This document shows, piece by piece, positions 3,291-56,001 of a stretch of DNA of 64,000 bases (within the stretch, counting starts at the first letter, position 1; every line of letters starts with the position of its first letter). This stretch comes from Octopus vulgaris. Its lineage: Eukaryota. Location of the stretch: the NCBI GenBank assembly GCA_951406725.2, contig OX597819.1, forward strand, positions 82,584,001-82,648,000, in the 5' to 3' direction. The translations under genes were made by a program, and so were the position numbers. The notes beneath the pieces are model-generated. The model worked only from the letters and a program-made list of their open reading frames with translations. It did no database searches and was not told the DNA's origin.

Positions 3291-4848
3291 TATTATTGAT
3301 AGAATACTTCTTTATGAAATGCTCTCCAAAAATGTCGCACAAGATGAATTTTCATAAATTAGAATGATTAAATTTTCCTCGTTTGAAAAATGCAACCAAA
3401 TTATACACAACTGACATAGAAGGGGTCTTCACTTGAGCGCATGTATGTGTATATCTTTACATATACACCTGTGAAATTTTATACATAGATATACTGAGAT
3501 TTTATAGGAGAATTTCAAACCAAATGCCTTTCAGGATTTAATTATGTTCTGACCACATTTTCTGCAAGTGTTTATTTTACCTTCCATCTCTCTTTGGAAC
3601 TTATACAAGTACCAGTCATATACATGGGTTGATTGTATTGACTATACATCTATCCTACAAATTTGTGATCTCATGCCAATGTTAACAAATTGATATTTTA
3701 TGAATATGTGATGATAATATATACATACTTCTGTGATTTATTATAAATTGAGTGTGCACGTGTTTATGTTTGAACATCTATCATATATTTATAAATCTTT
3801 TCATTGTTTGAATAATTTTTGTGTGATCTGATACCTGAATGACTACAGATAATAGAAAAACTGGTATTTTTATGATCTCCCATGGACATTTGTAATATTG
3901 TTATGTTCACTGTAATTGATATTGTTAATAAACTATTATCAAAGTTGGAAGTTTTCTTGTAAATATTTTTTTTCAGTGAAACTTATCATAACTGCATGTG
4001 TCTGTCTGTGTGTGTGTACATATAACGTAAAGGAATAGGGATTTAACATTCAGGCAGGTACCTTATGAGCACTCTGATATAAACCAGATCTGGCCAACCA
4101 CATCAAATGATAGGGAACATTCAGAACTGTTTAAGATAAACACTAGGTAAATTTTGAGTTTGCTTCATGTAGCATGCAGAGGATAAAATCTAGACATCAT
4201 AATGAGGAATGGAGTATTACACATCTTCAAAATTTATTCATTAAAGTATTTTCTTCATATTCCATTCAAACACATGTTTCTGTTGGATAAGTGCCTTAGT
4301 GTCCTTTGATATAGCAGATATGTGCTTTGAGTTGATTTATGTTAAATCAATTGCAACAGATTCAGATATAAAGGTTGACAACTTTATGTAGCTTTATCTG
4401 AGGTGTTATCCACAGGTGGGCAAAGCGAACTGACGATTCAAGTATTAAATATACATTTTAAAGTATACTTTCGGTGAAGGAATATGAAATATCAGAGTGA
4501 AAGACATTGGAGATATTGGCACTACAGATGAAGTACTAAGAGGCTGGACAATCATCATCTGCCACTGATACATTTTTTAGTCTTTTTAACACTGTATGCT
4601 TGCTTATAAGGGATTCTCAGGGTGAATACTATAGTAAGTTAGACTTTCAGTAATCTTTCTTTTTTAAGTGATACACAGATTAATACTGAAATGATCATAC
4701 ATAACAAATATATGTATATATATATATAACTGGTTATATAAGGATCTCCTGATTTTAGTGCTTCTAAATATTTTATATTATTACTTCTATAAATTAGAAA
4801 ATTACTATTTTTAAATCTCACAACATGAGATATTCAGCAACAGTGCTT

Positions 4849-5247
4849 TGTAGTAAAGATTGTTTGCCAACATAACATGGCAGTCCTGGTTTAGGATGAA
4901 TGTTGCTGTAATTTAGCCCCAGGAGATATCGTCTCCAGCTGGCTATACATCACGATCTGTATCCTTATATTTTCAAACAGGGAATCTAGCATCCCCACTC
5001 AGCTCAAAACTGTATCTGTGTATCACGATTTCCGGGTTATTCTGTGCTGATGAAGGGAAATAACCTGGAAATCACATTACACGGATATTGTTTTGAGCTG
5101 AGTAAGGATGCTAGATTCCCTTGTTTGAAAATATAAGGATACAGATCGTGTTGTATAGCCAGCTGGAGACGATGTCTCCTGGGGCAAAATTACAGCAACA
5201 TTTGTCTTAAACCAGGACTGCCATGTTGGCAAAAAATGTTTACTACA
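4849..5247. repeat. ~400-bp fold-back palindrome, probably an inverted PLE pseudo-LTR
   Basis: 4849-5041 is the reverse complement of 5059-5247 with scattered mismatches and small indels. The 17-nt loop contains CTGATGA. Confidence 0.95.
5042..5084 (+). ncRNA. Minimal type I hammerhead ribozyme at the palindrome hinge
   Basis: CTGTG-CTGATGA-AGGG AAATAA CCTG-GAAA-T CACA T-TA-CACGG. Stem I is CTGTG/CACGG; the mirror arm reads CCCG GAAA T CGTG A TA CACAG. Confidence 0.7.
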
Positions 5248-8200
5248 TTATTACTTCTGTTACAAAAATTTTTAATTATTTAAAGGAAATGGTATGACGT
5301 CTTTGTGTTTTAGTTTATGTCATACCAGACTTCTTAATTACACATTAGAATTTCATTTTTGAAGATAGGGTAAATAGGCTGTTGTGATAATCACACCTTA
5401 TCTGAAGTAATTATAATAATGATGCAACTATTGGAAATAAAATGTCTAAAGCAGAAATCAGTGTAATGTAGTGCAATAATTCATTATGTATATCAGGTAT
5501 TATATGTTGCTTTAATACTGGAAGTGGCTGTTCTGGGTATATACAACACATATACATCTATCTGTGTTAACAGTGAAATGTACTCCTTGTAGAAGAACAA
5601 GACTTCCATTGATAGAACTGGTAAGTTAAGATCTGTTAATGTTGGGCATAATAAACAAGATAACACAGAATCAAAACATATATTAAAAACTGTTATACTT
5701 TTCCCAGCAACTTCATTTAATATATTTATTTCTTATTTGAAACAAAACCTTTTTATAAGAGAAAGTTAAAACTACAGTTGCTCTTATTTCATTGAAAGAT
5801 GTTTTGTAGTTGCAAGTCAACTGAATGTAGTTGCAGAAGTATGCAAGTGACATTTTTACACAGAACGTAACACAAGCAAGTCCTAGATTCCGAGTAACAA
5901 ATCTACCTAAACAACTTATTGAATTGAAAGAAATGAAAGTCAACACTATGGAAATTGAATTCAGGCTCACAAACTATTGAACTAAATATGCAGCTCTCTT
6001 TACTGTCTATGACAACTGCATTACCTTTCCTTGTGTAATATAATGACAGATTGACATTTGCACTGAACTGACTCTGATACATATTTTATCTTCATTCAAA
6101 TTTGCAAGTGTGTAAGTTTTAACAAATGGGATTGTAACTGAAAGCTATTTCCATTATAAAACTGCCAACAGAAAGATAGATTTCCATTGAATTGAATGTA
6201 TTTCATTGCAAGAAAAATTAAGATACATACAAAAATACAATACCTTCATCTTATTCTCCTGTTCAATTATTGTCTTTCTTTCAGAGATGAATGATTTCAA
6301 TAATGGTTAACAAAGAGATTGTTAGTGCTTTGCATTTGATCTAAATTGACAGATTTTAACTCATCTGGTAATTCGTGACTTTTGCAGTAGTCATAAATCA
6401 GTTTTATTAATGATAAAACAGTCGTTAAATTGGTATTATTCGCTGTTGTTGTTATGTTGGTGATGTTAGTGGTACTGGTGGTGGATATGTTGGAGGTGGT
6501 GGTGGTTGCTGCTACTGTTGTTGTTGTTACTGTTGCAGTTAATTGTTACTGTTGCAGTTAATGTTGTTGTTATTCTTGTTAAATCCTGCATCACCTTTAA
6601 ATGAGCAGACCTATGACCAGAGACATATATTTCAAAGAATAGAATGGACTTTAAAATATATTTTATCGTCAAAGATCATTCCACCCATGACCATCCTGTC
6701 TGTATGTAGGACTGCACTGTCTGATGTTTTCTTCTTATTATTAAGAAGGTAAAGTGTGATATGAGGATTAGTTGGCTGCCATTTTAGCAGGTTGGGCAGT
6801 CTTTATATGATATCATTCCTAAATAATACTTAGGATAATTTATAAATGTACTTTTGAAATGAAGGCTCTCACAGTGTTAAGCTTTTTCCCAATCTCCAAT
6901 AGTACAATCAGAATCACCATGTATTATTCTTTATTCTATTGTTCTAGTTTAGAATAATAGAATTTGAAATCTTTTATATTAGTTTTATTATATAGATATT
7001 TTATACAAATTTTGTTGCTTTAATATTGAGTTAGTTTTCAAAGACTATTGAGTTAGTTTTCAAAAAACCTTTTGCTTTTTACTTTTTAAAATTCGTATGA
7101 ATATTCTTGTTGTATGATGTTTAAAGTTAAAAGATTCATTTGTTTTCTCAATTTTTATTAATTAGAATCGTCACATATTACACAATGTTGAAAAGAAAAT
7201 TCAAGTATGATACTTAGTTATCTTAACATCTTTTTGTATTCATTGTCAGCATTAATATTATCTTATTCATTTTAACATCTATCTTTTCATGATGACATTG
7301 GGGTTCAGACGACTCTTCAATTTATAATATTTCTCTATTTATCTCTTCCCTGCATTAGCTCATATTCTAGCCTGAACTATTGTCATCCTCTAGTTATGTA
7401 GATCTGTCTTTATCTGCAATCCCAAATCAATGCAATTTTTCAGCTATTATGTATCACATATGTCATATTTGTCAGAATTGTAGTTCTATCTCACTGAATG
7501 CACTGGCAAATGTTTTTCAAGTACATTCCATCACTTTCACAGCTTATATATTCTCAACATTTTTTTTCTCGTTTAAAACTGCATATCTACAGATTTATGA
7601 GCCAAAACTCAGCTTTACTATTATGTTTCTTATATATACTTCATACAATGCGCTTTACACATAGCAAAAGACAAATTTTGCAGATAATATACACAGAGTA
7701 AGAGCAATTATTTCAGTTCCTAACCTATATTTCATCTAGCCAGCAGAACTATCCAATACTTTCAACTAACCATCTTAGCAGTTTATTTTCTTCATTCAAG
7801 GATTTATTAGATTGCTAATCACTCTAACATTTCTTGTGACTCTTAAGTTCCAGACCACAGTTTCTCTATTATCTCCTCCTGCATATTGAACAATACTTAA
7901 ACTGCAGGACTTTTGCTCTTAATTAAGGTCATTGCTTTTCTGTTCAGCTACTGGTGATCAATAAAGACCATGATTGTGCTTATGTGATTGAATTTTATGT
8001 CTGTAGATTGTTGATGAAACCAATTTTAACATGGAAATAATAATCACATGTAGGGAACATGTGGTCTGTAGCTCTATTTGGATTATCAGCTGACAAATTT
8101 ATGCGGAACTTACATCTGGTTTCTGAAGCTTGACTGCATGTCTCATGTAAGCACTTTTGCATCTTTGCCCATGAGGGGACACCATAGGTACCTTCTTAGA

Positions 8201-9152: not shown

Positions 9153-9786
9153 TTTCAAATGTATGTATGATGAAGAGATGGAAACAGCTAATTAATGCAT
9201 CTGCCTTACATTTCTTGATATAGAGAAGGTATTTGATAAAGCCTTATATTCTGTATTATACAAGAGAATGTTCTTTTGATTTACTGTTCTGTAAAATAGC
9301 AGGAATTAAAATGTTGGTATACTCACTCACTTTGAGAAATAAGACTGGATACAGGAAATCAATTAGTGAAATTAATTAGGTCATTCTTGGCTATATTCAA
9401 TACACTAAGGATTTGAATTTGGAGTTTTTCATCTCTTAGACAGATATTCTGACAAGAACTAAGGAACCATCACTCTCAGTTGACATACTGTACTCTTAGA
9501 CACGAATGCAAATATTTCTATCCCTGTGCATGAATTATGTTGTTATAAGTTGGGGAAAAAACTAACAAAATGTGATCAAAAGAATCTTACCTAATCTGTT
9601 TTCTCAAAGTGAGTGAGAATACCAATATTTTAATTCCTGCTATTCTACAGAACAGTAAATCAAAAGAACATTCTCTTGTATAATACAGAATATAAGGCTT
9701 TATCAAACACCTTCTCTATATCAAGAAATGTAAGGCAGATGCATTAATTAGCTGTTTCCATCTCTTCATCATAAATACATTTGAAA
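9153..9786. repeat. 187-bp inverted repeat (arms 9153-9339 and 9600-9786, ~260-bp spacer)
   Basis: Arms are reverse complements with about 5 mismatches by eye. The arm encodes the decayed RT motif LTFLDIEKVFDK. Confidence 0.95.
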
Positions 9787-24069: not shown

Positions 24070-25965
24070 TAATGGACGATTTGACTGAGGACTGGCAAAC
24101 CAGTTGGCTGCACCAGGCTCCAATCTTGATTTGACAGAGTTTCTACAGCTGGATGCCCTTCCAAACACCAACCACTCTGAGAGTGTAGTGGGTGCTTTTA
24201 CATTCCAATGGCATGAGGGCCAGTCAGGTGGTACTGGCAACAGTGACAGAAAATCGTGTTTTTTTTACATGTCACCTGTACACTGGCACAAGTGCCAGTA
24301 AGGCGATGCTGGTAATGATCATGCCCAAAAGGTGCTTTTTACATGCCACTAGCACGAATGCCAGTTAACTGCTCTAGCAACGATCATGCTCAGATGGTTC
24401 TCTTAGTGCTCCACTTGTACAGATGCCAGTCATCGAATTTGATTTCGATTCCGATTTCACTTGCCTCAACAGGTGTTCACAAGTAGTGTCCAATGAAGGG
24501 AAGGTATGCATAAGTGGGCTGGTTACACTCCTGGCTTAGGCTACAAAGTTATAGTCTCACTTGGCTTTCCCGTTCTTCTCAAGCACAGCATATTTCCAAA
24601 ATTCTCAGTCACTGGTCATTGCCTCGGTGAGGCCTAATGTTCAAAGGTCATGCTTCACCATTTCATCCCAGGTCTTCCTGGGTCTACCTCTTCCACAGGT
24701 TCCCTCAACCACTAGGGTGTGGCACTTTTACACAAAGCCATCCTCATCCATTCTCACAACATGACCGTACCAGTGCAGTCATCTCTCTTGCACACCACAT
24801 CTGATGCTTCTTAGGTACAACTTTTCTCTCAAGGTACTTACACTCTGTCGAGTATGCACACTGACATTACACATCCATTGGATCATACTGGCTTCATTCC
24901 TTGCAAGCTTACGCATGTCCTCTGCAGTCACGGCCCATGTTTCACTGCCATGTAGCATGGCTGTTCGTACACATGCATCATGCAGTCTACCTTTTACTCT
25001 GAGCGAGAGGCCCTTTATCACCAGCAGAGGTAAGAGCTCTCTCAACTTTGCCCAGGCTATTCTTATTCTAGCAGCTACACTTTCAGCGCACCCTCCCCGC
25101 TACTGACTTGGTCACTTAGGTAACGGAAGCTATCAACTACTTCTAGTTTTTCTCCCTGGAATGTGGCAGAAGTTGTTCTCTGCTCATTTTCAGTGTTTAT
25201 TGCTCCTGAGCATCTACCGCATACAAAAACTATCTTCCCAGTTAGCCTTCCTTTGATATTGATGCACCTCTTATGTGTCCATTGCTTACACTGGGTACAT
25301 CTTATAGAGTTTCTACCTTCGCCTTTTCTACACATCAGGCAGGGCCATCTACTTGAAGGGATTTGTGGTTTGCCTGCCTTCCTACTTATTAGGACTTTGG
25401 TTTTAGCTAGGTTGACTCTAAGGCCCTTCGATTCTAATCCTTGTTTTCACATCTGAAACTCCTCCTCTAGTTCTGACCGTGACTCAGCAATTAGAGCAAG
25501 GTTGTCAGCATAGAGGAGCTCCCAGGGGTATCCTGGCTTGAATTTCTCTGTTATTGCCTGGAGGACTATGATAAATAGGAGGAGGCTAAAGACTGAACCT
25601 TGGTGAACCCCTGCCTCCACCTGAAATTCTTCACTGTATTCGTTGCCAACCCTCACCTTACTGACAACATCCCTGTACATATCTTGCACAGCTCTAACCA
25701 TTCATCTATCCCTAGTTTCCTCATTGACCACCAGATAAAGGATCAGGGGACCCTGTCAAAGGCTTTCTCTATGTCAACAAAAGCCAGGTACAGAGGTTTA
25801 TCTTTTGCCAGGTATTTCTCCTGCAGCTGTCTTACCAGAAATATAGCAGCAGTGGTGCATTTCCCTGGCACAAACCCAAACTGCATCTCATCTAAACTCA
25901 CTCTCTCCCTAATTAGTTGGGCTATGACCCTCTCTGTGACCTTCATTACCTAATCTAACAACTAA
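24070..25965 (-). mobile_element. 5'-truncated RTE-clade LINE (RT pseudogene plus 3' UTR)
   Basis: QFGFVPGK..AIFLVRQLQEK..AFVDIEKAFDRVP, GVHQGSVFSLLLF, ELLYADNL, NLAKTKVL, PHD-like insert, LEVVDSFRYL, AMLHGSETW; frameshifted. Confidence 0.95.
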
Positions 25966-30009: not shown

Positions 30010-32050
30010 TACATCATCATCAGCATTATGTTCATGTTTATGCTTGCTTTGACTAGTTGGGTCTTCTCTATAACCGTGTCTAACCAGTGTTCCAGTCCTT
30101 TATCATCATCTTTGTGAATTTCACCACTTCTCCCCATGTTTCTTTGGTCTTTCTCTTTCACAGGTTGTTTCCAGTTTGGCTTGCTTGGCACTTCTCTACC
30201 CAATATACACACGCATCTGGCAGCTCTTATTCTAAGTTTTCCTCTCAATTCATTTGTGTTATGTTATTCATGTTCATGAACACATCAAGAAGAACATACA
30301 CACCTCATTTCTTTCCAGCCTTCACACATCCAGTACAGCATTGTACTTTGTACCCAAGTATCTTACAATCTGCTCTTCAGTTGAAGAATGGACTCCTTTA
30401 TTGCCAGTGGAGGTAATAGCTCCCTGAATTTTCTCACTCTATTCGTGCTCTGGTTATTAAGTTCTGTGAATACCATTTTCACTACTAGTTAGGTCAGCTA
30501 GGTAACAGAAGCCATCAATTACTTCTAGGGGGCATTCTGCATATTTCAAAGAATTTATTTCATGCATGTACTTGCAACTAATTATTCTTTTGCATCCAAT
30601 ATGTATGAAGTCTGCTTCTAAACACCATCAACGTCTTGGGCATTAGATCAGTTAGACTGGATTGGGTACACCATATGGAATTTCAACATCTTCCTTTTTT
30701 ATAAGTCAAGCATTTTTATGCTAACAAAAATGTTTGCTTCTATATTTGAAATTTCTCCTCCAATTCTGATAGTCATCTACGAAAACTATGAGATCTGATC
30801 AATAAGTATCCGTAGTGATGCCATAGTAACGAAGCTAAAGCATACAGAGTCAAGCAATTTGGCAAGAATTGACTTTGAACTCTGTTGTGTATGCACACTA
30901 AGTTTTAACATTCTAGCTCACTTCGGCTGCTTCCAGCAGTGCTTGGTAGGAAGGTGTGTAGTGTGTGATCATCGCATTGACCATGACAGAGAAAGCTGAC
31001 CTGGCAATACCTGCTCAGAAGCCTACATAAAGTGGCAGAAAGTGTATGGAAAGGAATGTATGAGCTGCACACAAGTGTATAAGTGTTTCAGATGTTTCCA
31101 AAAGGGCCAAAAATATGTCGATATTGATGAACGTTCTGGGAGACCTGCAACCATTAGAATTGAGAAAAACATTGCAGATGTGCATGCAATTCTGAGGGGA
31201 AACTGTCAAATCTCCATCAATGAGTTATCAGGGGATGTGCAGATTAGTTATAGTTCAGTTCAGTCCATTATCACTGAAGATTTAGGCATGAGACGCATGT
31301 CTGCCAACTTTGTGTCAAAACTGTTTTCAGCTGACCAAGAAGATACTCGGGTTTCAGTTGCACAGAATCTCCTTGACTGTGTTGCGAACAATGAAAACTT
31401 TTCGAAAACTTTGTGTAGGCCTCTGAGCAGGTATCGCCAAGCTTTTGGCAACATTTGATGTAGATTCTCTGTTCAACTTTCTCTCTCATGGTCAATGCAG
31501 TGATCACACACTACACACCTTCCTTCCAAACACTGCTGTAAAAAAAAGCAGAAGTGAGCTAGAAATGCACATGTGCAGAGTTTAAGGTCAATTTGTGACA
31601 AATGGCTTCACTCTGTGTACTTTAGCTTTGTTACTATGGCAACAATCTGGATACGTATTGATCAGACCATGTATAATAGGACTCAGAAATTCCTTGGAAA
31701 GAGTGTAAAGCAAAGATCTGATGGATGCCTATCTGCACATTAAATTCCTTATTGATCTCATTACTAATTGACACCTTACTAAGAGAATTTCTGTACATAA
31801 CTTGCAGGGCTCTCACCAACAATTCATCTATGCCAAAGGTACCCTGGCAAGGGCCTTCTTCAGGTTAATGATTGCTATATATTATAACCTGCCTTTTGCT
31901 GATATATCCTGATATTGTAGTCTCACTAAGGAGAAAGCATAACCCAAACTCTGTCCTACCATGATTTGAACTCTATTTCATCAGAGCTAATTTTCCTCAT
32001 TAGTTGTGAAATATTTTTTTTCTGTAACTTTCATAACTTGTCCATCATTT
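30010..32050 (-). mobile_element. Decayed RTE LINE interrupted by a mariner derivative
   Basis: LVRALQVMYRNSLSKVSISNE..FNVQIGIHQ right of the insert; LEVIDGFCYLADL and KVQCCTGC..(GAT)n remnants left of it. Confidence 0.7.
30789..31671 (+). mobile_element. Non-autonomous mariner with ~250-bp terminal inverted arms (fold-back derivative)
   Basis: TA on both sides; ends TGAGATCTGATCAATAAGTATCC and GGATACGTATTGATCAGACCATG. Internal transposase N-terminus (DERSGRPAT..ISINELS..IITEDLGMRRMSANFVSKL). The right arm carries inverted KVEQRIYIKCCQKLGDTCSEAYTK. Confidence 0.9.
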
Positions 32051-50700: not shown

Positions 50701-51041
50701 ACTTCTTTTTTTCCAATCAGTTCAAAATGTGCAACTATTAATTACGATGTTTTTTTTTCTCTATATCAATCCTTTCTGAAGAAGAGCATTGGCTTGAAAT
50801 ATTAAAGACCCTTCCATTTTCCTGAACATCAAACTTAATACACCTTGTTTGTTGTTCCGTCACCTGTCTCTGTCCATTTTTTTTGTACACTTTTGAACCA
50901 TATATATGTCTGCATGCATGCATGCATTATCTATTTATTTATTTTATTAATATTTAGCAGAAGCAACAGAGTGACTCAAGGGCTGAGAGTTTCATGCATT
51001 AGCAATTATCAAACCTAAATATATATATAAGTATATATACA

Positions 51042-51110
51042 ATGAGCTTCTTTCAGTTTCCATGTATCAAATCTGCTCACAAGACTTTGGTTGGCCCAGA
51101 GCTATTGTAG
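51042..51110 (-). mobile_element. SINE family A fragment fused to an RTE fragment
   Basis: gcttctttcagtttccatgtatcaaatctgctcacaagactttggttggcc. Confidence 0.65.
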
Positions 51111-52240
51111 AAAAACTAGAAGTAGTTGATAGCTTCCGTTACCTAGGTGACCAAGTCAGTAACAGAGGTGGATGCTCTGAGAGCATAGCTGCTAGAATAA
51201 GAATAGACTGGGCAAAGTTCAGAGAGCTCCTACCTCTACTAGTAGCAAAGGGCCTCCTGCTCAAAGTGAAGGTAGACTGTATGATGCCTGTGTGTGAACA
51301 GCCATGCTACATGGAAGTAAAACATGGTCTGTGACTGCTGAGGACATGCATAGGCTTGAAAGAAATGAAGTTAGTATGCTCCTTTGGATGTGCAATGTCA
51401 GTGTGCATACACGACAGAGTATAAGCACCCTGAGAGAAAAGTTGGACATCAGATGTGGTGTGCAAAAGAGATAACTGTGCTGGTATGGTCATGTGGTGCA
51501 TATGGATGAGAACAACTGTGTGAAAAAGTGTTACGCCCTAACAGTGGAAGGAACCTGCAAAAGAGGGAGACCCAGAAAGACATGAGATGAGATGGTGAAG
51601 CACAACAGAGTATAAGCACCCTGAGAGAAAAGTTGTACATAAGAAACATCAGATATGGTGTGCAAGAGAGACAACTGTGCTGGTATGGTCATGTGGTGCT
51701 AGCTCACATATAGCAGAGAGGTGGTTGTTTAGACATATTTTAGCCAAAACAAGAACAAGTTGGTAAAAGTTCAGGGTACTATTATTACTACTGTTAGTAA
51801 TGAAGATTTTCTTCCTCAGATTGAAGGGTAACTTGTACGACGTTTACATTAAAACTGCAAGGATGCATGATAGTAAGTCATGAGCCTTAAAGGCAGTAAA
51901 CTTATGAAGATCAGGAAGAAATGAGGCAAGTATAAACCAATAAGTATATAATGTTAATATGCATAAATATCAGAATAAAATCAGCTGAAAGAAAAAACTA
52001 GGTGCTGTGTGCAAGAGAGAAAAATGTCACATATAAAGGATGATTGATACATAAAGATGTGCCAACTCTAAATTAGTGGAACCTAGAGAAATGGGGAAAT
52101 GGGGGACAGAAGAAGACTTACAATGAAGTAGATACTGCATTTCACAGAGCAGAAGACAAATTACTGTACCGATTGGTAATATGCAGTACTACAGAGGACC
52201 TGTCCACCTATGGCAAAACATAACTTCAGACAAGGATAGA
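51108..52240 (+). mobile_element. RTE LINE C-terminal fragments: a younger copy with internal duplication, then an older copy
   Basis: EKLEVVDSFRYLGDQVSNRGGCSESIAARIRIDWAKFRELLPLL; 51414-51499 is repeated at 51605-51698; a more decayed homologue starts at about 51720. Confidence 0.85.
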
Positions 52241-52794: not shown

Positions 52795-54081
52795 TTGAGT
52801 CATCCTATAAATAATGCAGTTTGTTTCAATTGCATGAACTAAAGGTTGGAGTGGGATGGGATAAACTACCTCCATTAGCTTGCTATAAAAGCAGGTAGTC
52901 ATTTTACCTTGTACTTATTCATAGTGCAAGTTTTAAAGAGTGCAGTTCGATTTTAACAGTTATTTTTTCAAAGTTATAATGGAAGTGACAAAGGAGCATA
53001 TTTGGTATATTTTGCTTTATGAGTTCAATAAAGGCAACAACACAACAGAAAGTGTGGAGAATATTAATACGGTGTATGGGGATTGGGCAATAAGCATAAG
53101 CCAGTGTCAATGGTGGTTCCAGAAATTCCAAGCTGGAAACTACAGCCTAAAAGAAGAGCCTCATCCTGAAAGATCTGTGGAGATCAACAAGGACATCCTG
53201 CAAACCCTGGTGAAACAAAATCCTATCGTAACTGTTGAGGAACTAGCAGAGAATCTTGGATTTGGTCATTCAACCATTCATCAACACCTGCGTGCCATCA
53301 GAAAAGTCAGCAAATTGGATCAGTGGGTTCCTCACAAACTTTCTGTGTCTAATCATGTGCAGAGAATGAACGCGTGCTCTTCTTTGCTGAAACATCTCAC
53401 AAATGAACCTTTTTTGGACTGAATAGTGACTGGCAATTAGAAATGTGTTCCCTATAAAAATGTCAAGTGCCAAAGACAGTGGGTAGGGAAAAGAGAAATA
53501 CCAGCACCCCAGGCTAAAGAAGGTCTTCACTCATGTAAGGTATTGTTATATGTCTGGTGGGATATGAAAGGTTTAGTCCATTTTAAGCTTTCAAACCCAA
53601 ACCAAATGATAACAAAGGAGATCTACTGCAAGCAGCTTCAGTGGCTGAAGTCAGCTCTAGAAGAAAAACGACCATCTTTGACTTCACAACGAAAGGTGAT
53701 TTTCCATCAGGATAATGCTCAGCCCCATGCAGTGAGGATGACATTCCAAAAGTTGGAGCAGTTTAAATAGGAAGCGATGACCCACCCACCATATTTGCCA
53801 GACATTGCTCCATCTCATTATTATTTATTCCGTAGTCTTCAAAATCATTTGGACAGAAAAAATATGAATTCTGTAAACGAGGTCAGAATAGTACTGGAGG
53901 AGTATTTTTCATCTCAGACAAGTGAATTTCAGAAGAGGGGTCTTGGAAGTCTTCCAGATAGATGGAAGAGCATTGTAGAAAATGAAGGAGAGTATATTTT
54001 AGATTTTTAAAAATCTTGGTTTATCTTAATTTTGAAAATAAAAGAAGTATAAAAAAACACATTATTTATGGGATGACTCAA
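52795..54081 (+). mobile_element. Full-length (1287 bp) inactive mariner transposon
   Basis: TA TSD; TIRs TTGAGTCATCCTATAAATAATG and CATTATTTATGGGATGACTCAA. Transposase from ATG 52979 with WVPHKL, IVTGN*K, FHQDNAQPH and HPPYLPDIAPSHYYLF; in-frame stops, first and third catalytic Asp mutated. Confidence 0.97.
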
Positions 54082-54284: not shown

Positions 54285-56001
54285 TGAGGTGTGTTAAAAA
54301 TATCTGACTTTGTTTTGTTCTTGCCAAAACTAATGCTGTGTGGCCAAAATCCTTTAAGTGGGAAGTGAATCCACCCTTCCTAAGCATGAATGAAAATTTT
54401 TGGTACCAGTAGGCCATGTCAGCTATCAGCTGTTATGCTTAGAGTACAGATGTGTAGTTCACACTCATCAGATTTTTGTTTTCATATAAGATGACTGAAC
54501 ACATTGAGCATAGATATCGCAAAATGTTTTGCCAAAAGTTTGGTGATAATTAGGCGTAGGAGTGGCTGTGTGGTAAGTAGCTTGCTTACAAACCACATGG
54601 TTCCGGGTTCAGTCCCACTGCATGGCACCTTGGGCAAATGTCTTCAACTATAGCCTCAAACCAACCAAAGCCTTGTGAGTGGATTTGGTAGACGGAAACT
54701 GAAAGAAGCCTGTCATATATATGTATATATATGTGTGTGTGTATGTTTGTGTGTCTATGTTTGTCCCCCCAACATTGCTTGACAACCGATGCTGGTGTGT
54801 TTACGTCCCTGTAACTTAGCAGTTCAGCAAAAGAGACCAATAGAATAAGTACTAAGCTTACAAAGAATAAGTCTTGGGGTCGATTTGCTTGACTAAAGGC
54901 GGTGCTCCAGCATGGCCACAGTCAAAATGACTGAACCCAGTAAAAGAGTAAAAGAGAGAGTATACTCAATTTCAAACCTACCAGAAGATTCAGCAGGCCT
55001 TTGATAATGATGCCATGGGAAAACGTCAGATCAAGGAGTGGTAAAGCTGCTTCAAACCTAGCCACACCTCAGTGGAGAGTGAAATATGCACAGGCATGCC
55101 ATTCTCAAGCCAAAACAAAGAGCCAATTGGAAGACCCTTGTGTAACAATACAAGAAATTGCTCATGAAGTGGGAATCAGTACATTTCATTTTGACTGGCA
55201 ATTTGTACCTGTGGATAGTGTCAATGAAATTCGTTGTGAAAGTTCGAGCAGAACGCCAGAAGCAACTCCAGATGGAAACTGTGTAGGACATGCTGGACTG
55301 TGCAACCCATGACCTAGACTGCATGAAGACCATCATCACTGGGGATGAGACATAGGTTTATGGTTATGACCCAGAAACCAAGTTCCAGTCCTCCCAATGG
55401 AAGCATTAGTCATCACCAAGGCACAAAACAACATGATAGGTTTGCAGCAATGTGAAGGTAAGGTTGACCTGTTTCTTTGGCTCATGTAGTATTGTGCATT
55501 ATGAATACACACCACAAGGCCAAACAATGAATAAAAAATACCACTTGGAGGTTATACATTGCCTTCATGATGCCATGCATCAAAAGCAACCAGACATGTG
55601 GGCAGCGAAGAATCAGCAACTTCACCACAACAATGCGTCCACTCATTCTGCCCACATAATTCAAGTTATCCTGGTCAACAACAACACAACACTTGTTCGA
55701 CAGGTTCCCTACTTTTCCAACTTAGTACTGTGTGACTTTTGGCTCTTCCCCAAACTGGAAACCACACTGAAATGGAAATGACTTGATTAGTGAGAGGAAA
55801 TTATTAGAGAAGCAATGCTGAAGCAGCATATGATTCCAGAGACGATCTTCAAGGGCTGTTAACAGTAGTAGCAGAACTGCTGGGTGAAGTGCATGAACTC
55901 CCAAGGAGATTATTTTAAAGGCAATTAAATAAAATTTGTGAAATGTACAAAATTGTTTTTTTTTTATACCCAAAGGTCGAACACTTTTTGAATGCACCTC
56001 A
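54285..56001 (+). mobile_element. Second mariner family, decayed, with nested SINE
   Basis: Ends TGAGGTGTGTTAAAAA and TTTTGAATGCACCTCA; IITGDET*VYGYDPETK, LHHNNASTHSAH, PYFSNLVLCDFWLFPKL. Confidence 0.9.
54553..54958 (+). mobile_element. SINE family A, full length, nested in mariner
   Basis: Near-identical to 10128-10530; interrupts the transposase after FCQKFGD. Confidence 0.92.

Follow-up and report, generated by a model that had tools for sequence, protein, structure and literature searches.

The palindrome at positions 4849-5247 of the window, the 64,000-nucleotide stretch of Octopus vulgaris DNA analysed here, appears to be a decayed insertion of a non-LTR retrozyme, composed of two 5'-truncated copies arranged head to head and likely inserted in trans by the reverse transcriptase (RT) and endonuclease of a Penelope-like element (PLE). 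We hold this reading at a probability of roughly 0.84. The underlying family has a unit of 351 nt and, as judged from sequence, behaves like a PLE terminal repeat devoid of genes while carrying every retrozyme feature that can be tested at this level. The family is new, its kind already known: among the papers listed on octopus hammerhead ribozymes and on non-autonomous Penelope elements none was found to describe it, and Repbase/Dfam or supplementary files may hold one.

The preliminary description correctly recognised two arms of about 190 bp (4849-5041 and 5059-5247) around a 17-nt loop (5042-5058), with 170 of 188 columns aligned and 6 gap positions. It took 4849-5247 for the entire element, but the insertion actually covers 4789-5246 and is asymmetric, the left arm running on to 4794 or 4789 (bases 4789-4793 are either the unit continued or derived from the target). 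The extension is a 57-bp tail (4794-4850, minus strand, unit 295-351) that is absent from the right arm; each of the 24 top copies has such a tail on one of its ends, trimmed in a few of them. An exact 12-mer at 4777-4788 and again at 5247-5258 constitutes a 12-bp target-site duplication enclosing both arms. The long arm (4789-5041, antisense, 94% to the family consensus) is 5'-truncated and extends over unit 103-356 to a long 3' terminus, and the short arm (5037-5246, sense, 90% to the consensus), likewise 5'-truncated, runs from unit 81 to about 295, a short 3' terminus. They overlap at the junction by TTATT (5037-5041), a 5-nt microhomology common to both. Other copies stop at places equivalent to both ends of this insertion, in aligned copies as well as in reads and contigs, and in three DNA runs the contigs terminate at 4794 and at 4848-4852, the same two ends. 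An empty-site allele was not seen in three DNA runs. The window insertion is common to another organism, since one run of that organism spans both junctions.

The long 3' end (window 4786-4801, minus strand; unit 345-358) resembles a branch point with a 3' splice site, and among the RNA reads listed no spliced joint was found. Elsewhere in the window, 9153-9786 holds a 187-bp inverted repeat of 97% identity with a 260-bp spacer that is single copy in a genome search and thus probably a local inverted duplication, and there are stretches that we take to be decayed LINE-like or mariner-like coding fragments (24765-25953, 50987-51334, 31000-31458, 52937-53422 and 55440-55781).

What repeats in the genome is not the palindrome, which the preliminary description had proposed as the mobile unit of a ribozyme-MITE family, but a circularly permuted 351-nt monomer in which the sequence upstream of the ribozyme core leads back round to the tail. 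With the first base beyond the long end taken as 1, CTGATGA begins at unit 91, the predicted cleavage site follows 123, and the two 3' ends fall at about 294 and 351, 57 nt apart. The monomer occurs solo and in short direct tandems of at most 2.2 units. A 30-nt motif from the 3' end is matched exactly at 928 sites of the genome; with exact-match counts scaled by the fraction of independently selected copies that match exactly (10/59; 9/45), about 5,500 arms and about 1,800 ribozyme copies are estimated genome-wide, likely lower bounds. No stop-free frame of 110 aa lies over the element, and the window contains no match to a PLE protein. With a tandem unit that falls within 150-450 bp and bears one hammerhead, no coding capacity, a GC content below 50% (41%), highly self-paired RNA (z -8.2 for folding of the family consensus) and target duplications above 4 bp, the family has the sequence attributes of a retrozyme. 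It is strongly clustered, at 0-10, 104-116 and 201-206 Mb of C1 and 0-10 Mb of C2 in G000, and a subfamily marker at unit 294 differs between clusters (27 C and 4 A versus 3 C and 12 A), a hint of local hopping.

Hammerheads share the conserved core CUGANGA ... GAAA ... UH. All 11 core positions of a type I hammerhead are intact in 29 of 40 copies chosen by their 3' end, and a 27-nt pattern of the ribozyme core has 354 exact genome matches as opposed to none for the reversed control, which argues that the hammerhead pattern is not due to chance. Genomic copies have decayed at 12 of 440 core positions versus 122 of 1880 other non-CpG sites. The helices around the core are paired in 91.6% of 418 cells (19 of the 40 family copies together with 19 copies of a sister family), compared to 6-56% in slid controls. 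The ancestral ribozyme inferred in the preliminary description is identical to the family's majority sequence, and this holds for the CGCG loop and for the A/G pair beneath stem II as well.

The sister family, found by chance, has a 353-nt unit, inverted copies and two 3' ends 39 nt apart. Its hammerhead has the same core with identical spacing (367 exact core matches), and its copies (L190-L229, for example G000:C4:116249732-116250048) are about 88% identical, with the same 3' hairpin cluster and a GUC triplet at the cleavage site, where the 351-nt family has AUA. It looks evenly spread along the chromosomes. Between the two families both sides have changed in five of the six stem I pairs and in the inner one of the two helix III pairs, which makes six compensatory pairs in support of the three helices around the core. 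These changes represent a single divergence event from family to family rather than many, which counts against the reading, and they therefore point to selection that once acted on the master RNAs and not on the copies in the genome. Widely spaced pairs of sister-family hammerheads proved to be separate insertions. Two further palindromes, of 434 bp (L182, about 7030-7450) and 370 bp (L189, about 390-760), each hold a different hammerhead-like motif and are probably further families of the same kind.

A hammerhead is expected to close helix II with a Watson-Crick pair directly beside the core. This pair is absent: A stands opposite G or A in the 351-nt family and C opposite A in the sister family, and the A/G at the base of stem II is thus as non-canonical as had been suspected. 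A mismatch beneath a 3-bp helix II is retained in both families, and the A/G pair is therefore a lineage trait. Comparable departures have been published (PMC4209133, PMC7229834). A change of G to A at unit 100, present in 32 of 115 arms, weakens helix II and counts against the ribozyme. The Rfam hammerhead model gave no match at E<=10 within 4000-6000 of the window and none at E<=1 in the loci of six better copies. Stem I is prolonged as an imperfect rod spanning unit 36-183 (z -6.9; -61.7 kcal/mol in sense versus -48.5 in antisense) that pairs the sequences flanking the ribozyme on both sides, inside one unit. Two copies are predicted to co-fold into a dimeric hammerhead with CUGAUGA and GAA unpaired; for a single copy, the minimum-energy fold mispairs the core and lies 3.9 kcal/mol below the core-open fold.

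Which PLE might have mobilised these units? The genome harbours an intact, very young PLE (L182-L189, for example L185:3126-5471) with a stop-free frame of 781 aa that comprises RT together with a GIY-YIG domain at the C terminus, a further open frame upstream, partial tandems and copies up to 99% identical. It has two 3' ends of its own, about 35 nt apart, and (TA)n targets unlike those of the 351-nt family. The canonical hammerhead pattern was not found in its terminal repeat, and eight of its copies show no significant match to the unit; a resemblance of 12 nt close to the 3' ends is no better than in shuffles (p about 0.7). No significant match to the unit emerged from the top 30 of 6136 GIY-YIG candidates either. 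RT fragments near L038 and L235, and between two sister-family copies in L231, were considered as partners, but they sit beyond the target duplication or are separate from the elements. An ORF encoding RT and GIY-YIG is lacking from the window element. The view of an ORF-less, PLE-derived element stands as far as the missing ORF, the type I hammerhead and the PLE-style inverted insertion are concerned, but sequence shared with a PLE was not found among the elements compared.

It could be argued that the copies are simply 5'-truncated stumps of the pLTR of an autonomous PLE that is lost or was not sampled, with no separate retrozyme involved. All the structural marks are those of PLE ends (PMC8557442), most arms are shorter than one unit (median lengths 157 and 199 nt), and the partner search covered the top 30 GIY-YIG candidates. 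However, arms that exceed one unit continue into the same 351-nt unit rather than into an ORF (L038, L055-L058), the RT matches near family loci are not part of the elements, and the rod joins both sides of the ribozyme within a single unit. We therefore consider this scenario unlikely. At L235:2457-3366 a 910-bp insertion of the family contains an 854-bp palindrome, both arms of which are longer than one unit, with a perfect 15-bp target duplication.

The structure of the insertions was analysed in 87 loci drawn from the first 100 listed matches to the 3' motif (contigs C1 and C2 only), which after removal of two duplicates gave 85 insertions. Sampled in this way by their 3' end, they comprise 60 head-to-head pairs, 20 solo copies and 5 complex cases, with a tail-to-tail neighbour in one complex case only. 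Among the 52 pairs whose outer ends could be classified, 51 combine a short with a long end and one has two long ends (binomial p 2e-14 against an even split); eight pairs had an end at neither site, and the short-plus-long count ranges from 49 to 51 depending on cut-offs. Exact flanking repeats of at least 8 nt accompany 32 of 50 insertions versus 2.4% of 2450 mismatched flank pairs, and the target duplications, 8-15 bp, vary in sequence and length. An inverted, 5'-truncated head-to-head copy and a one-sided tail between fixed 3' ends are thus the rule, as in insertions of the PLE type. The inner ends behave differently from the outer ones: the inner break points of the 60 inverted insertions scatter over 650 nt (unit -366 to 284), without correlation between the arms (rho -0.23, p 0.11). 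Of 100 arms, 14 stop within the 45-nt ribozyme, a complete ribozyme is missing from 26 of 50 pairs, and the arms overlap by 1-10 nt at the junction in 30 of 50 pairs.

These data bear on the proposal that the palindrome itself moves, as a MITE or fold-back element that is centred on the ribozyme and hinged at a fixed point. MITEs have symmetric terminal inverted repeats, uniform length and a fixed short target duplication. The octopus elements are likewise short, non-coding, abundant and provided with a long inverted repeat, but their ends are asymmetric, their centre and length vary per copy, their duplications are variable and direct tandems occur; the 351-nt family accordingly lacks the hallmarks of MITEs. 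A DNA search with the palindrome did return about 40 full-length look-alikes among 3068 candidates, and nine of the top 24 share the window junction, though these were ranked by likeness to the query. In the 24 look-alikes fetched and aligned, one arm is about 57 bp longer, the left in some and the right in others, so that the asymmetric ends swap sides. Recurrence of palindromes with the same hinge had been suggested as a test; the hinge of the window copy was seen in none of 50 pairs sampled independently of it, and a pattern for its neighbourhood recovered only eight junctions genome-wide, six of them at the TTATT overlap; a wider pattern gave 19 matches with many different joins. Descent of the same-hinge copies from one ancestral palindrome was also considered, but copies less than 1 Mb apart share rare variants only a little more often than unlinked ones (3.6% versus 2.5%). 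The variable duplications and the existence of solo and tandem units complete the case, and the palindrome as a mobile unit, largely refuted, is very improbable.

The idea of an inversion point fixed within the ribozyme, also put forward in the preliminary description, fares no better. Given the scattered break points and the TTATT overlap, the hinge of the window copy is a chance stop fixed by microhomology, and its position inside the ribozyme is incidental. It is conceivable that ribozyme cleavage or folding nonetheless determines where inversion occurs, or that hairpin and ribozyme form a selected RNA switch or a source of dsRNA. Five of 100 inner ends do lie at unit 120-126, near the cleavage site predicted after 123, but with 17 ends in the flanking 50 nt about 2.4 would be expected per 7 nt, a weak excess at most. 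Moreover, the inner ends of the window copy (81 and 103) are not at the cleavage site, helix III is mutated and the microhomology accounts for the junction. A transcript through the window copy is predicted to form a hairpin of -304 kcal/mol that would exclude the ribozyme fold, and in this the mutual exclusion of the two structures was rightly anticipated; taken together, we regard a ribozyme-determined hinge or a selected switch as having very little chance of being correct.

The window hammerhead (5041-5085, plus strand) is arranged as originally placed, with CTGATGA at 5047-5053, GAAA at 5068-5071 and cleavage predicted after A5079. Stem I has its 5' strand in the loop (5042-5058), which also provides CTGATGA and the initial bases of stem II; stem I pairs 5041-5046 with 5080-5085, stem II 5055-5057 with 5064-5066, and helix III spans 5071-5078. 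The long arm contains the 3' half of a hammerhead (5015-5041, minus strand), again as described before, but no CTGATGA, and cannot fold a ribozyme alone. All 11 core positions of the window hammerhead are intact. Five changes within 5037-5100 break helix III and its palindrome: 5077 A>T disrupts the inner pair, and 5074 and 5076 turn the palindromic loop into CACA. With helix III broken, the upstream stem lost from this copy and the whole predicted to be buried in the -304 kcal/mol hairpin, the window ribozyme is predicted to be dead.

In three RNA runs, whose library type and species match are uncertain, family reads follow the 3' bias of the genomic copies, and 63-71% of them continue into unrelated sequence, which is what passengers in host transcripts would show. 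Read ends do not pile up at the predicted cleavage site and both read directions are alike, in libraries whose strandedness is unknown and which may miss circles. The suggested role of the palindrome as a dsRNA source finds no support: unique flanks beside the element attracted no reads in 6% of one RNA run, possibly from another species. Change spectra on the window are alike in RNA and DNA runs, and none of these data speak for or against circles or editing.

If a single copy had inserted first and DNA fold-back repair had later made it a palindrome, one arm should derive from the other, as proposed for rotifer PLE head-to-head palindromes read as self-priming products (PMC3846280) and as would fit the 20 of 51 short arms that lie wholly within their long arm; yet in 28 of 51 pairs each arm has sequence absent from the other, the short arm reaching further 5' and only the long arm having the tail, which indicates that neither was copied from the other, both window arms have such private sequence (left, unit 297-356; right, unit 81-102), the target duplication encloses both, and differences from the consensus are shared little more within an insertion (10%) than between insertions (7%), making this scenario extremely improbable.

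The favoured scenario is that both arms of an insertion arise from one PLE-catalysed event. The template would be a multimeric or circular RNA. The enzyme would nick both target strands about 12 bp apart, and each nick would prime a cDNA, with the long and the short start site used once each; the two cDNAs, made from the same or like templates, would then stop early and join via a few complementary bases. In the window copy, the stops at unit 81 and 103 would by chance have fallen on either side of the ribozyme's 5' half. The arms of an insertion tend to share subfamily variants: they are concordant at unit 294 in 58 of 80 cases (p 2e-4) and also agree at unit 111 (p 0.007), the remaining sites falling short of significance; private variants are seldom shared. 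For the active family, the hammerhead would process multimers into monomers, likely in dimeric form by way of the palindromic helix III. Consistent with such a scheme, a PLE protein both cuts the two strands and extends them, starting at two internal sites that set the limits of the tail (PMC11167929), inverted 5'-truncated copies with a one-sided tail and a target duplication have been published for PLEs (PMC8557442, PMC3846280), and retrozymes are known as 150-450-bp hammerhead tandem units with large target duplications (PMC7229834). The in vitro work reports no strand difference in the use of the start sites (PMC11167929), and the strict pairing of short with long ends is not thereby predicted. 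Perhaps both target nicks are always primed together, one per start site, and helix III, acting as a dimer signal, joins two template RNAs for a dimeric RT, so that the ribozyme would be retained for pairing templates in addition to cutting. We consider this addition unlikely, as Naiad PLEs do without hammerheads and yield inverted insertions with a tail (PMC8557442) and insertion in vitro persists with catalytic mutants of the hammerhead (PMC11167929), both of which count against template pairing by helix III.

The family combines traits of two known systems. Like metazoan retrozymes, it has a non-coding unit (351 nt versus 350-390 in mussel and 330/350 in axolotl), a type I hammerhead (helix III of 2 bp, tetraloop), and, as in axolotl HHR_Amex2, a mismatch at the base of helix II (PMC7229834; bioRxiv 10.64898/2026.07.22.740005); low GC content, strong self-pairing, large target duplications and thousands of copies are further points in common. 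Unlike them, the octopus family, known here from its sequence, is mostly dispersed, truncated and present as inverted pairs rather than in long arrays; the words 'inverted' and 'tail' do not appear for retrozyme insertions in the main texts of the two papers. With endonuclease-bearing PLE insertions, the family shares partial tandems, an adjacent inverted 5'-truncated head-to-head copy, a tail at one end, a target duplication of about 8-15 bp and a hammerhead in the terminal repeat (PMC3846280, PMC8557442, PMC11167929), but it lacks an RT/GIY-YIG ORF and has no match to the intact PLE examined. Published PLE tails measure 30-40 nt, as compared to 57 nt here and 39 nt in the sister family (same sources). 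The hammerhead also resembles those of PLEs and other metazoan type I motifs in its 6-bp helix I, short helix III, palindromic loop and predicted dimer, and an unpaired base 5' of helix II has been described for them; it differs in its 3-bp helix II, which is 7-8 bp in minimal PLE hammerheads, in having extra bases on both sides of helix II (A and G here, C and A for the sister family) and in a helix I that continues into a rod of about 55 bp (PMC4209133).

By itself the window locus is an ordinary decayed repeat. The family, by contrast, offers a direct structural argument on a point that is widely assumed but still open, namely that Penelope-like enzymes move animal retrozymes. Whereas the two retrozyme papers argue from co-occurrence and pLTR phylogeny (PMC7229834; bioRxiv 10.64898/2026.07.22.740005), the octopus insertions show the full PLE signature. 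Any model of PLE integration has to account for the near-strict pairing of a short with a long end, and a 351-nt template whose two start sites are mapped would make a compact substrate on which to test it.
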